A DNA stretch of 44,350 bases from Puniceicoccales bacterium (GCA_031270475.1 JAISXO010000046.1:1-44350); one strand, 5' to 3'; positions 5,287 to 36,229 are shown, counted from the stretch's first letter. Notes: generated by a model from the sequence alone, not told the origin. Numbers and translations are program-made.

Positions 5287-5381
5287 ACAATGCAACAATG
5301 CAACAATGCAACAATGCAACAATGCAACAATGCAACAATGCAACAATGCAACAATGCAACAATGCAACAATGCAACAATGC
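5287..5381 (+). repeat. Perfect 8-bp tandem repeat (ACAATGCA) x ~11.9 containing 12 ATGs
   Basis: Read directly from the sequence; overlaps the translation start of the pilin-like gene. Confidence 0.98.
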
Positions 5382-6161
5382 GTAAAAAGTAAAAGTAAAT
5401 CTTTTACGCTGATTGAGATCGTTTTTACGATTTCCATCATTGGTATTTTGTTAGCCATTTTATTGCCCGCAATGAGTGCCATCAAACTCAATGCGCAGAA
5501 AGTAAAAGATCAGTCGAATTTACGAAAAATCGCCGAGGCCTGGAAAACTTTTTATGTGGAAAAAGGTATAGGTCATATAGGATCTGGGGATTGTACTGCT
5601 CTGGATATGGTTGCATCTTATGCTGGTACTTGGTGGAAAGATGGGCCCGTGTTAATAAATGATCCTCACGTTTATGTTTCCTCGGCTGATCGTTACGCTT
5701 CTCCCGTTCTCGGAGAGTCCGTTCTTGGCGATTTTCCCGGTGGGTTCCAGGGTACGGCCTTCAAGGCGGTTAATAATTTTCTGACAGATGGTGAAAGCGT
5801 CGTATTTAGTTATTGCCTCATTGATCGAATTGAGATCAGTGTTCCCCTGGAAACAACACCCATTGCCTTTACCCGTGGACTCAAAGAAAATGGCCTTTGG
5901 GACGAAAAAGCAGGCCTTTATGGCGCGAAAGGAGGCTTTGTTGTTTTCGGGGACGGTCACATAAGCTGGTTCGATGGAAGTAAACCAGCAAAATTCCTGA
6001 AATGGGATGGGTCGGGTTATACGAATAACATTGTGGAAGCATTACCTGCTGCCGGATATGGATTCGATGGAGCTTACATTGGCGCTGGATTTTATTTGCC
6101 AAGCGACTTAGAGAGTGAGCAGGACGGTTCGCGGATTTTGCTTAATGTAAACTACACCTGA
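5370..6161 (+). CDS. Prepilin-type N-terminal cleavage/methylation domain protein (pilin/pseudopilin-like, PVC 'DGH' family); only intact member of its variable subfamily
   Basis: MQQCVKSKSKS|FTLIE, hydrophobic helix, TPIAFTRGL, FGDGH; in-frame ATGs at 5298, 5322, 5346 and 5370, so the true start is uncertain. Confidence 0.85.
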   Translation: MQQCVKSKSKSFTLIEIVFTISIIGILLAILLPAMSAIKLNAQKVKDQSNLRKIAEAWKTFYVEKGIGHIGSGDCTALDMVASYAGTWWKDGPVLINDPHVYVSSADRYASPVLGESVLGDFPGGFQGTAFKAVNNFLTDGESVVFSYCLIDRIEISVPLETTPIAFTRGLKENGLWDEKAGLYGAKGGFVVFGDGHISWFDGSKPAKFLKWDGSGYTNNIVEALPAAGYGFDGAYIGAGFYLPSDLESEQDGSRILLNVNYT

Positions 6162-6183
6162 TTTTACTTGGTGCGTAATTTTT

Positions 6184-6245
6184 GTGTGCCACTCGCTCCC
6201 GCTCTTTACTTTCTAGCCTGTCTACCATTTATAAAACTGTTAAGT
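6184..6245 (-). promoter_or_regulatory. 62-bp promoter-leader element, copy B (TTAACA-N17-CAGGCT plus leader), pointing antisense into the 3' end of the pilin-like gene
   Basis: Direct repeat of copy A on the other side of the gene. Confidence 0.65.
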
Positions 6246-6339
6246 AATTTTTTTTAATTAATAAAAAATAAATCCTTTGCTTCGAAAAAGAATAATAGGT
6301 TGCATGTGTGTGTAAAGTTGCATCGTAGATGAAAATAGT

Positions 6340-7107
6340 ATGGATCGTATGAGCGAAAAATTGGGGAGTTTGTTTGCCGAAGCACGCCAAAAAAAAGGGC
6401 TTTCGCTGGATGAAGTGGCGGAAGCGATACACATTAAAGCGGAATATTTGGAAGCAATTGAAAATGAGCAATTTGATTTCAATTTGCCCGATATTTATCG
6501 CCGTGGGTTTTATAAGTCCTATGCCGATTTCCTTGGGCTAGATCGGGAGGCAATAATGCTCAAATGTCCTATTAAATCATTTGAAACACTGGAATCTTCT
6601 CAGAAACGTCGAGATATGGTGTCGCAGGTCGCCAAAAAAACGCAGGAAGTAAATCTCGATCAGGTAAAAACTTCATTTTCAGATGACATAGATGGAGCTC
6701 AGGAAGACTTTCAATCCCGGACCATGGACAGTATAACAGCCATAAAAATGATAGGTGTCATTGGTGGAACCGTTTTGCTTGTTTCGCTGCTGATATACCT
6801 AATTATTAGCATTGTTTCTCGTCCAAACCTATCGCCTTCAAAGGCCACACAACAGGAAAATATTAGTGCAATTGTTGAAAAGAAAATCACTATGCGAGCC
6901 AGTGGAGACGTCAAAGTGATGGTACGTTCCGAGGAAGATAAGGCGAAATTATTTTCAGGAATGGTACAAAAGGGTACGGAACAGATCGTTACCTATAGGG
7001 CACCGATTCAAATTTTCTTTGATCGGGGAGAGTTTTTGGTCATTGAATTAGCCAATGGGGAGTTTCTTCATCCCGACTCGGGACGCGGAGGCATTCAAAT
7101 AAAATAA
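6340..7107 (+). CDS. rodZ: RodZ-like HTH / transmembrane cell-shape protein
   Basis: N-terminal XRE HTH (LSLDEVAEAIHIKAEYLEAIE; YRRGFYKSYADFLGL), one TM segment, C-terminal beta domain. Confidence 0.75.
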   Translation: MDRMSEKLGSLFAEARQKKGLSLDEVAEAIHIKAEYLEAIENEQFDFNLPDIYRRGFYKSYADFLGLDREAIMLKCPIKSFETLESSQKRRDMVSQVAKKTQEVNLDQVKTSFSDDIDGAQEDFQSRTMDSITAIKMIGVIGGTVLLVSLLIYLIISIVSRPNLSPSKATQQENISAIVEKKITMRASGDVKVMVRSEEDKAKLFSGMVQKGTEQIVTYRAPIQIFFDRGEFLVIELANGEFLHPDSGRGGIQIK

Positions 7108-33976: not shown

Positions 33977-34078
33977 AATCTATTCGCTCTTATAACGGTT
34001 CCTTCCAAAAGGTAAATAATAAATTTTAGTGGAAACGAAAAGATTCAGGAAAAAAATTATTTGGGTAGCAAGCTAAAG

Positions 34079-34743
34079 TCAATTATCATTTGGCAAATCG
34101 AAAATTAATTCTTTACCCGATTGATCATGTTCTGCGAAATAAGCGAGCGTCGATTTTCCCTTATTTTCTGGCATCGATTTCCATTCATTTATGGCATCCT
34201 TTTGATAGTCTTTTAGGATCTTTGCCTCTAATTTTTCACTGATGTTCGCTTCTAACATGTTTAAAAAATTTTGAACCTGCTCGCTATTTTTCTCACGATC
34301 CTTTATGTCGGCAATAAATTTAGCTAGCATAGTCAACCCTTGCTTTGAAAGCCAACTGAAGGGATGACTGAAACCCTTTCGGCATAATATTTTGTGAATT
34401 CTTAACAAGCGATGAAACCATATTGGCAATTGAAGTAATTTTTTCATTAAAATCATTTTCTTTTGTTGGCTTTTCCAAACCTAATATTACTTTTTTTACA
34501 TATTGCATACCGTGAGCAACCATATTTCCGAAACCACCAGTACTAAAGCTTTCAAGTTTTACAAAAGTTCGATTCCGCTCAAATCCTGTTTCTTGGGCGG
34601 AAAGTTTTCCAAATAACAAGGTATTTCCACCGTAGGGCAATTTTTCTTCTCTTTCAGCTTCAGCAGATTGTCCTTTTGGGTAAGCATCAAATCCCATTTG
34701 TGTAGCCTTGCTATTCGGAAAGGGTTGTAAATGGGAACTGTCG
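34079..34743 (-). pseudogene. 3' part of the orphan gene begun at 17252-18014 (frameshifted segments 34743-34320 and 34456-34079)
   Basis: Starts DSSHLQPFPNSK at the 14-bp repeat, in the same frame as the end of ORF 17835-18017. Confidence 0.6.
34730..34743. repeat. 14-bp inverted repeat, right arm (AATGGGAACTGTCG); inversion breakpoint
   Basis: Exact reverse complement of 18002-18015. Confidence 0.9.
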
Positions 34744-35268
34744 ATACGGATAGAGAAAGTTCCCTGGAGCGCGCGTTGATAATGGATCCCCATGTTTATA
34801 TTTCTTCGACCGACCGTTACGCTTCTCCAGTTTCCGGAGAATCCATTGCTCGCTATTTATCATTAATTGATAATCCCGACAGTTCTGTTCCAAACCCTAT
34901 CGGAGTTACAAGCAATTTTTTGACAGATGGTGATGGCGAAGTACTTAGTTATTGCCTCATCGGAGGATTGTCGGACAATATTTATTTGGAAACAACACCC
35001 ATTGCATTTACTCGTGGACTTAAAGAAAATGGTCTTTGGGATGAAAAAGCGGGCCTATATGGATTTAGGGGAGGGATTTGTGGCTTTTGCGGATGGACAT
35101 GTAACATGGTTTGATGGTAGTAAACCGGCAAAAATTTTGAAATGGAATCAATCAGGCTATATCAATAATATCAGGGAAACAGTACCAAATGAAGCTTATA
35201 TTAGCGCTGGATGGAATTTAAAGACCGATTTGAGAAGTGATCGGGACGGTTCACTGATTATACTTTAA
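34731..35268 (+). pseudogene. C-terminal two-thirds of a pilin-like gene; +1 frameshift in a G-rich stretch at ~35073
   Basis: DPHVYISSTDRYASPV, SYCLI, ETTPIAFTRGLKENGLWDEKAGLYG, then a shift to FVAFADGHVTWFDGSKPAK; no N-terminus here. Confidence 0.9.
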
Positions 35269-35439
35269 TCCATACCAAGAGATAGGTGTAGATCAATAAG
35301 AATTTTAATAAGAAATTACCAAAAATAGGTAGAACTGTTTTTCATCTTTGGAGGAAAGTCGATATCTATTAGGTTATTTTTTTATAATTTCTAAAAAATA
35401 AAAAAATTTATATTTTCCTCTTGACACGATTAATTTACA

Positions 35440-36229
35440 ACGCAGCAACGCGTAAAGAGTAAAAGTAAATCCTTTACATTAGTTGAAATTGTTTTTACTA
35501 TTTCCGCCATCGGCATTTTACTAGCGATTCTTCTGTCGGCAATGAATGCCATAAAACTCAGAGCACAAAAGGTAAAGGACCAATCCAATTTGCAAAAAAT
35601 CGCCGAGGGTTGGAAAACCTATACCGTCGATAAAAACTTTGGAGTTTTTTTTGGTGAGCATATGGAATTTGTACATCGTTTGTCGGGAGGTGGTCCTGGT
35701 TGGGAAAGTCAAGAAAAATGTATTATCAATGATCCCTATGTTTATATCTCTCCGAACGATAAATATGCTTCAAAAATTGTAAAAGAGGAAATCAATGGTC
35801 CGGGAGGTAATGAGGCTGCTTATTTTGGTACGTATACGGGGGGCAGAAATGATATTGCGAATGAAACTGCTATTTCATTCAGTTATTGTCTCATTTCCGG
35901 CCTGTCTGTATCGGTACCTCTCGGCCAGTACACCCGTAGCTTTTTTCCGCGGCCTCAAGGCAAATGGCAAATGGCATTCCAAGTATGGTCTTTACGGCGA
36001 TAAAGATGGTTATGTTGCGTACTGTGACGGCCATGTAACTTGGTTCGATGGAAGTAAACCAGCAAAATTTTTACACTGGAACGGCCAAGAATATACTTCC
36101 GATATCCGCTGTACCTTACCGAGTAACGCATTCATTTCCAGCGGATACTTGATGAAAACAAACATCATAGATAACGACGGCTCACCGCTGCCCATTCAAC
36201 ACGCTGGCGTTGGTGATTCTGCTTCTTAG
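35440..36229 (+). pseudogene. Full-length pilin-like copy with ACG start, deleted -10 region and a +1 frameshift at ~35922
   Basis: (T)QQRVKSKSKSFTLVEIVFTISAIG...; in-frame TAA at 35431 just upstream; ORFs 35542-36003 and 35795-36229 are its two halves. Confidence 0.9.

Follow-up and report, generated by a model that had tools for sequence, protein, structure and literature searches.

Pilin-like genes of a Puniceicoccales bacterium probably form an Opa-like family switched by short coding repeats

Is a pilin-like gene that has its own promoter and two promoterless relatives the expression locus of an antigenic variation system, or one member of a family in which each gene can be switched on its own? 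This question is raised by a 44,350-bp stretch of DNA from a Puniceicoccales bacterium (called the window here; it is the complete contig C8 of genome G000). An initial annotation had described one intact gene in it (A) and two silent copies (B and C), and had proposed that segments of the silent copies are donated to A, as pilS cassettes are to pilE in Neisseria. We consider it likely that A, B and C instead belong to an Opa-like, repeat-switched family of pilin-like genes with leaderless-type starts, in which B and C are decaying members. The genes of this family would be switched on and off within the bacterial population.

The Puniceicoccales are an order of the Verrucomicrobiota, in the Planctomycetes-Verrucomicrobia-Chlamydiae (PVC) group, and many homologues of gene A are labelled 'MAG: ... 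Puniceicoccales bacterium' by NCBI (MAG, metagenome-assembled genome). G000 comprises 967,924 bp in 55 contigs and is estimated to be 93% complete. The 13 genomes of the same genus measure 0.6-1.1 Mb and contain 2-27 family matches apiece, and several of the small genomes hold the family's largest copy numbers. The copy set of the initial annotation was real and incomplete. Three distant copies also lie in the window, and nine more close loci are found on contigs C20, C23, C44, C53 and C54; G000 has 12 close loci and 6 distant ones altogether. Some copies have decayed, such as the promoterless C20:883 with its multiple frameshifts, and decayed copies are also found in relatives; C54:18538 and C53:39 have lost their 5' ends at contig ends. 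We surveyed the 5' regions of 69 copies from G000 and 11 relatives, each with an N terminus at least 50% identical to that of A and with at least 120 nt of upstream sequence; 6 further N-terminal matches lie too near a contig end. About 11 of the 69 have short open reading frames (ORFs) that no contig end explains.

Upstream of the FTLxE motif that begins the predicted mature protein, the copies share one layout: TTGACA, 16 nt, a -10 box (for example GATAAT, AACAAT or AAGAAT), an ATG, about 10 nt, a perfect tandem repeat and a lysine/serine-rich leader. We scored a repeat wherever a perfect tandem of at least 3 units ended no more than 70 nt before the codon of the conserved phenylalanine (F codon). 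Such a repeat is present in 35 copies: the unit is 8 nt long in 30 of them, 5 nt in 3 and 7 nt in 2, the number of units is 3-21, and the tract ends 14-68 nt before the F codon. No tract is found in 33 copies, and one more, the decayed C20:883, contains AATx3, the sole unit with a length that is a multiple of three. The position of the tract is fixed in at least 7 genomes, while the unit sequences are unrelated among lineages (ATGCAACA, CAACGCAG, AATCAACG, AATCGAAA, ACAAAACG, ACAAAGCG, CAGAAGTG, GGCATACA, GGGATACA, GCGATACG, CAACG, GGAAACA and others). A scan of G000 for perfect repeats (units of 4-12 nt, n >=3) returned 47, and all four with an 8-nt unit are located at 5' ends of family members; only two of the 47 have n >=5, namely those of A (x11) and C44 (x10). 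An '8-bp switch' had been mentioned beside the cassettes in the initial annotation, and it is this part of the proposal that now becomes the main mechanism, on a family-wide scale. In the relative G006 (L005, L026, L031, L050 and L051), tracts of (CAACG) x6-21, AGAACAC x7 and GGAAACA x10 replace the octanucleotides. The leaders of repeat-free copies (L006, L009 and others) frequently contain runs of 7-9 A in their lysine-rich part, for example ...caaacaaaaaaaaatcc; homopolymer slippage may be a second switch, and L006 is out of frame at its A-run.

The start codon has an equally fixed place. Among the 43 copies having a promoter and a downstream ATG, the first ATG follows the -10 box by 6 nt in 28 and by 7 nt in 6. 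Because this ATG sits where transcription is expected to start, we infer that the mRNAs of the family are leaderless. We compared its frame with that of the pilin-like protein in copies that have a promoter, this first ATG and an ORF of at least 230 aa. Of these 36 intact copies, 15 are in frame and 21 out of frame; for those with a repeat of n >=3 the numbers are 11 and 14. When any in-frame upstream ATG is accepted, 15 of 31 intact repeat-bearing copies are on and 16 off, two of the latter (L015, L033) being truncated upstream by a contig end and thus not judgeable. Paralogues that have the same flanks differ only in repeat number, and their frame is the one predicted by arithmetic: copies with ACAAAACG in G010 and G009 are in frame at n = 4 and 7 and out of frame at n = 3 and 5, and copies with ACAAAGCG in G009 are in frame at n = 4 and out of frame at n = 8 and 9. 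Within G000, the only full-length copy with a visible 5' end that is in frame with the conserved ATG is C20:1724 (276 aa); A, C54:13633, C53:66020, C23 and C44 are out of frame.

The out-of-frame copies are not decaying. Counted from the F codon, their ORFs span 235-270 codons. In an alignment of 65 sequences, conserved blocks (residues 11-60, 97-110, 147-149 and 159-215) alternate with variable stretches (residues 61-96, 111-146 and 228-263), as the initial annotation had recognized. Three G006 copies with (CAACG) x21, x6 and x12, all of them out of frame, have ratios of nonsynonymous to synonymous substitution rates (dN/dS) of 0.04-0.06 in the conserved blocks, at dS 0.35-0.64, and of 0.50-0.99 in the variable blocks. 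For the 28 closest pairs listed, dN/dS is 0.02-0.16 in conserved blocks (two pairs could not be computed, with dS saturated) and 0.04-0.99 in variable ones. We therefore consider the variable blocks relaxed or partly diversifying, and not clearly under positive selection as a whole.

Gene A has the layout of the family (Table 1), and its earlier description as an intact gene behind a promoter is borne out by the open 263-codon frame and the near-consensus promoter. The ATG from which A had been read does exist. It is the last one within A's own repeat unit, whereas the start conserved in the family lies upstream of the tract and is out of frame. At the 11 units assembled, only repeat-internal ATGs are in frame, and the on/off state of A is ambiguous, owing to the ATG-bearing unit. 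Translation from the conserved ATG would probably be leaderless. An exact scan of metagenome contigs for the flank between the -10 box and the repeat of A returned 0 stretches, in a search from which records of the same genome were possibly excluded.

Table 1. Positions, in the window, of gene A, its relatives and associated features (a slash marks the predicted leader cleavage site)
Feature	Position	Strand	Description
Dispersed element, ~75-80 bp	5120..5205	+	Upstream of A; core GCCGCTyGyTCCCACCCTCT ... TGTCAAGT; the '62-bp element' of the initial annotation
Promoter of A, sigma-70-type	5242..5269	+	TTGACA (5242), 16 nt, GATAAT (to 5269); 11/12 consensus positions; layout repeated in paralogues and relatives
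Family-conserved start ATG of A	5276..5392	+	6 nt past -10; 38-codon out-of-frame peptide ending at TAA 5390-5392 with 11 repeats
Octanucleotide tandem repeat, (ATGCAACA) x11 + partial unit	5287..5381	+	All three frames open; in-frame ATGs at 5298, 5322, 5346, 5370
Gene A, pilin-like, 263 aa from last repeat ATG	5370..6161	+	Open frame; leader KSKSKS/FTLIE, long N-terminal helix, beta-rich head
Dispersed element, degenerate	6188..6260	+	Downstream of A; core scan
5' half of unrelated gene cut by inversion	17404..18013	+	Frameshifted; homologue G001:C59:15929-16306
Left inversion junction	18002..18014	-	13-mer ATGGGAACTGTCG; word count
Cn, 5' piece of C	18014..18292	-	-35 remnant TTGACACGATT (18281-18271), deletion scar, ~1.5-2 repeat units, leader, N-terminal helix, TAA just before junction
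Dispersed element, further copies	18310-18420, 21564	-	Core scan
Three tandem distant pilin-like genes	29994..32024 (genes 29994-31973)	-	33-38% identity to A, no repeat tract, in-frame ATGs
3' half of unrelated gene cut by inversion	34320..34730 (wider 34079-34793)	-	Homologue G001:C59:16493-16900
Right inversion junction	34731..34743	+	13-mer ATGGGAACTGTCG, inverted; word count
Cc, 3' piece of C	34731..35268	+	A-like (~60% aa identity), one frameshift near 35075-35087
Copy B	35421..36229 (homologous part 35443-36229)	+	-35 remnant, deletion scar, no start codon, one frameshift near 35890-35925, else open

These observations suggest how the family may operate. Each functional member would be its own expression unit, with a near-consensus promoter, an ATG 6-7 nt past the -10 box and probably a leaderless mRNA. 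The 8-nt (rarely 7- or 5-nt) repeat would encode part of a cleaved leader peptide and would be followed by the lysine/serine-rich leader and FTLxE. Slipped-strand mispairing that adds or removes one unit would shift the pilin frame into or out of register with the ATG; since none of these 35 tracts has a unit length divisible by three, the frame moves with each such change. With the repeat located ahead of the predicted cleavage site, the mature protein would be the same whatever the repeat number of an in-frame copy. The genes would switch individually, like the opa genes of Neisseria. B and C were probably once a tandem pair, with their 5' module spread by duplication or gene conversion; this module lost its -10 box and ATG by a deletion of about 30 nt between GATT direct repeats, and frameshifts, as well as a 16.7-kb inversion between inverted 13-mers that split C, came later.

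A, B and C can be assigned to a lineage-specific expansion of type IV pilin/pseudopilin-like genes. In Pfam, A matches the N-terminal methylation motif only (PF07963, 25 bits against a cut-off of 21.2, residues 7-32), and F+1 and E+5 of a class III signal peptide are directly visible in its FTLIE sequence. The NCBIfam matches of A are confined to the N-terminal portions of pilin and pseudopilin models and do not reach cut-off (TIGR02532 with 15 bits against 16.3), and an H-X9-DG model of the TIGR04294 type is not among the 11 NCBIfam families found for A at E <=1. JGI names homologues 'prepilin-type processing-associated H-X9-DG protein', the names given by JGI and NCBI also include 'PulG', and A contains the conserved C-terminal motif DGHISWFDG. 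A structure model of A calculated from the 65-sequence alignment (predicted local distance difference test, pLDDT, 92.2; predicted template modelling score, pTM, 0.87) combines a helix (residues 14-64) with a beta-rich head; a Foldseek search of the PDB with this model found nothing at E <=0.001. G000 encodes a prepilin peptidase (Peptidase_A24), three T2SSE ATPases above cut-off and three secretins. The family proteins would be assembled into a pilus and exposed on the surface.

Several points weigh against a slippage-switched pilin family. The best full-length structure matches of A are pilins, and they are weak (PilA4 with Z 4.4 over 120 residues, EpsG with Z 4.2, every row below 5). Position -1 of the leader is occupied by S and not by the canonical G, both in A (KSKSKS/FTLIE) and in the family consensus (..KS/FTLxE); A or S may be tolerated at -1 of a prepilin cleavage site, and the repeat-free orthologue in G005 has A there. 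Processing of a leader with S at -1 is therefore putative. The repeat unit of A (ATGCAACA) and the unit CAGAAATG in G011 contain an ATG, so that an in-frame start always exists, and frame switching there would depend on the 5'-terminal AUG being dominant. By the start-codon rule, 7 of the 11 intact copies that lack a tract of 3 or more units are out of frame as well, so this rule may under-call the 'on' state, or short tracts and A-runs may slip too. All three CAACG copies of G006 share one wrong frame, which could hint at an unrecognized start or at recoding. The consensus sequences of MAGs may misreport tract lengths. Finally, B has one frameshift only, which leaves a small probability that it is a recent or even maintained silent copy, a sequence reservoir.

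B and C are indeed related to A, with homology at 35443-36229 for B and at 18262-18014(-) plus 34731-35268(+) for C. Both keep the -35 box, the leader and the entire 5' constant coding region, where they are 85-97% identical to several other copies. In both, TTGACACGATT is fused directly to AATTyACAACGCAGCAACGCGTAAAGAG. Aligned with intact paralogues, both lack some 30 nt that lie between two GATT direct repeats and contain the -10 box and the start ATG; the intact copy C20:1724 here reads ttgacatgatt-catgaaatcgcgataattatttcatgatt-aatttgcaacgcag.... A promoter scan paired the TTGACA of neither B nor C with a -10 box, and neither copy has an ATG, GTG or TTG between the upstream in-frame stop and the leader. 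The shared loss of a -10/leader segment, which the initial annotation had placed after TTGACACGATT, was thus seen correctly. The other silencing change then proposed, ATG to ACG, has to be dropped: ACGCAGCA is the repeat unit of the intact C20:1724, and the ATG of that gene lies in the upstream stretch that B and C have lost.

Over 207 nt, including the inactivating deletion, B and Cn have 97.1% identity, and they are unrelated thereafter, in good agreement with the reported near-identity over the first ~200 bp and the abrupt divergence that follows. B and Cc give no blastn match and have no common word longer than 10 nt. The lesions of B comprise the shared deletion, the absent start codon and one frameshift; those of C are the shared deletion, a stop/frame change near 18020, the inversion and one frameshift, and a frameshift in each silent copy had already been reported (positions in Table 1). 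B and C are very likely decaying relics, and the decay of a tandem pair, which the initial annotation itself had offered as an alternative, fits them. At the position of Cn, adjacent to and divergent from lysS, G005 and G002 (L010, L011) hold an intact repeat-free family member with the leader MGQKGRRRA/FTLIE. Since these orthologues have a short ordinary leader without a repeat, the repeat switch seems to have been acquired later, in the expanded lineages.

That C is joined across two sites is supported by the 13-mer ATGGGAACTGTCG, of which the window contains exactly two copies, inverted relative to each other, with 0 expected by chance. Flipping 18015-34730 rejoins C and also a second gene (17404-18013(+) with 34730-34320(-)), the two halves of which lie in one 465-aa open frame in the relative G001. 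The 16.7-kb inversion that splits C is real. The second gene matches no Pfam family, and it is a pseudogene, because each half itself spans two frames.

Recombination between paralogues at the 5' module is also real. A pairwise homoplasy index (PHI) test on 10 copies (635 ungapped columns, 368 informative sites) gave 0.6389 against 0.6734 +/- 0.0067 for permuted data, with 0 of 1000 permutations as low and with an uncertain alignment in the variable parts. C54:18538 is a mosaic, the first 116-119 nt of which are 100% identical to C53:39, while its remainder is A-like (66-91%). The mosaicism check proposed in the initial annotation is thus positive for the family, but A has no near-identical tract of more than 29 nt in common with B or C. 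The identical word common to A and B is indeed 29 nt long. We rejected it as a conversion tract, as it lies within the most conserved block (WFDGSKPAKF) and A shares an equal 29-mer with C53:66020. The recombination detected is concerted evolution, or a shuffling of the 5' switch module against different heads; it does not amount to evidence of programmed donation to one locus.

A dispersed element borders several of these genes (Table 1). G000 has 50 of its cores at no more than 5 mismatches: 13 are no further than 450 nt from a close family copy, in each case on the gene strand, and 37 lie elsewhere; the element is enriched at family borders and is not specific to them. It also contains ...TTTTTACGTGCCGCTTGCTCCCACCCTCTACTCTCCAGCCTTG...CTGTCAAGT..., its TTGTCA end scores as a -35 box with a downstream AATAAT, and tandem triplets of it are found at C22:2318-2650. 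Its RNA fold is no better than that of shuffled sequences (z = 0.32), and Rfam identified no family at the element or anywhere else in the window. At C53:66978-67080, a stub that has a promoter, ATG and leader extends for about 28 codons and stops at the very point where a dispersed element starts, which suggests an insertion of the element or recombination at it.

Contig ends fall in the constant 5' region of the family: the end of C54 (18576) and the start of C53 (1) share an identical 119 nt. Other breaks, where C18 and C54 begin (position 111), fall at identical stretches of the element plus upstream sequence, and several contigs of relatives terminate at or close to repeat tracts. From the contig breaks within the family it follows that two or more 5' switch modules are missing from the assembly, and the family may have more copies than were counted.

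How do other explanations fare with these findings? In the organisation originally proposed, A would be the sole expression locus, and B and C would be maintained as promoterless donors for RecA-dependent gene conversion via the conserved blocks. The lack of a -10 box and start codon in B and C, the alternation of conserved and variable blocks, the recombination within the family (PHI, C54:18538), the frame of B, which is open save for one frameshift, and its 29-nt word in common with A are all consistent with this; RecA (G000:C10) and RuvB (window 16117-17112) are present, which does not discriminate between models. However, six other loci have their own promoter and ATG (the full-length C20:1724, C54:13633, C53:66020, C23 and C44, and the stub C53:66978), and in the tandem arrays of relatives every unit comes with its own promoter and repeat tract. 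The -35 box, leader and 5' constant region, which pilS copies lack (PMC6796969), are still present in B and C, and the window contains no guanine quadruplex (G4) motif (G3+ x4) on either strand. The first 165 coding nucleotides of A are 71-81% identical to those of 10 other copies, though the protein is nearly invariant there, and its longest exact matches are 29 nt with B, 19 nt with Cc and 14 nt with Cn, so that no long tract is shared. Moreover, B and C are frameshifted, C is split by the inversion, and A itself is out of frame by the family start codon. We thus regard a single expression locus fed by silent cassettes as very unlikely. A surface-variation system as such stays plausible, with paralogue recombination detectable; it is the cassette organisation that fails, wherever the sequence allows a test. 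We also considered a two-tier system, in which dozens of pilin-like genes of a non-pathogenic, genome-reduced genus would be toggled by octa-, hepta- and pentanucleotide slippage on leaderless mRNAs, combined with paralogue recombination that swaps the 5' switch module against variable 3' heads, drawing also on B, C and C20:883 and with the dispersed 75-bp element at the border of each unit as a recombination or mobilisation site. Here we are doubtful, and consider it unlikely.

Plain genome decay would explain the repeats as debris of neutral slippage and the out-of-frame copies as young pseudogenes of a family that is being lost. It would suit a small genome with pseudogenes (B, C, C20:883, the inversion-cut gene and others), the ~11 of 69 copies with unexplained short ORFs, and the fact that out-of-frame copies outnumber in-frame ones. 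It is at odds with a repeat that is fixed between ATG and leader in at least 7 genomes although its unit sequences are unrelated, with unit lengths of 8, 7 or 5 nt throughout the 35 repeat-bearing copies and a single unit divisible by three, in a decayed copy, and with the absence of such repeats elsewhere in G000. The long out-of-frame ORFs, the low dN/dS of their conserved blocks and the size of the family, which is largest in several of the small genomes, likewise speak against decay, which appears improbable to us as an account of the whole family. Alternatively, the misassembly of a repeated family in a metagenome bin could have produced the break in C, the frames or the numbers of repeats. 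G000 is in 55 contigs, and contigs do break within the family, at the 119-nt identity of C54 and C53 and near tracts in relatives. Yet the inversion junctions are clean, the shared 13-mer is far below assembly k-mers, and both cut genes match across. The architecture recurs in 12 independently assembled genomes, one of them a single contig with a repeat-free orthologue, and the tracts do not exceed 120 nt. An assembly artefact thus seems extremely unlikely.

The three distant pilin-like genes in the window are conserved, have no repeat and are located directly downstream of genes for a MoxR AAA ATPase (32987-33976) and a DUF58/vWA protein (32070-32984), within 29874-33976(-). A similar tandem cluster of distant copies recurs in most genomes of the genus, and the three genes are probably housekeeping (pseudo)pilins. 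An alternative genetic code was considered and rejected, as there was no sign of one and every ORF could be read well with table 11.

A few host-adapted pathogens provide the textbook examples of repeat-driven contingency genes. If our preferred reading, a repeat-switched pilin-like family, is true, such genes would extend to the Verrucomicrobiota and to ~1-Mb genomes that keep up to ~27 detectable family matches. The retention of the family in genomes of this size would imply strong, fluctuating selection on a pilus-like surface structure, with phage, the host cell and partner recognition as candidate agents. The layout makes it testable how slippage controls translation when the start codon is at the 5' end of a leaderless mRNA. 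In practical terms, gene callers will mis-start or drop many such genes, and assemblers break contigs there.

We compared the family to known systems. At the level of titles and abstracts, the literature we searched contains no description of this system, or of repeat-based switching in the PVC prepilin-like group. The H-X9-DG/'PulG' prepilin expansions of PVC bacteria have in common with our family the N-terminal methylation motif and a conserved C-terminal ...DGH..WFDG... motif; A differs in having no listed H-X9-DG model (NCBIfam, E <=1) and the Pfam N_methyl motif only. Simple sequence repeat contingency loci, such as those with tetranucleotides in Haemophilus influenzae or homopolymers in Neisseria and Campylobacter, also switch translation of surface-structure genes on and off by repeat slippage, whereas here one family monopolises the long repeats of the genome. 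To our knowledge, few examples of octanucleotide contingency loci exist.

In Neisseria gonorrhoeae, one pilE gene is accompanied by 19 pilS copies that have no promoter, ribosome-binding site or 5' constant region, and variation requires the G4 with its small RNA as well as RecA, RecO, RecR and RecG (PMC6796969). The family described here resembles pilE/pilS in encoding a pilin-type protein with a constant N-terminal and a variable C-terminal part, in having some promoterless copies, in the presence of RecA and in detectable recombination between paralogues. It differs in its many promoter-bearing genes, in a constant region retained by the promoterless copies, in the lack of a G4 in the window and of donated tracts seen in A.

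The closest parallel is with the opa genes of Neisseria, for which PMC5320596 gives 11-12 paralogues and (CTTCT)n tracts with n = 2-30. Opa is a beta-barrel adhesin and not a pilin-like protein, and our units are 8, 7 or 5 nt long and vary from gene to gene. The start codon is apparently at the 5' end of the transcript, the organism is a genome-reduced verrucomicrobium and not a pathogen of a host with adaptive immunity, and switching is inferred here from sequence and not measured. The opa repeat encodes the signal peptide, and in both families a coding repeat with a unit that is not a multiple of three is found in the part specifying the cleaved leader, which would leave the mature protein independent of n. 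In both, about a dozen dispersed paralogues have their own promoters, so that any subset could be on, conserved and hypervariable segments alternate, and the paralogues recombine.

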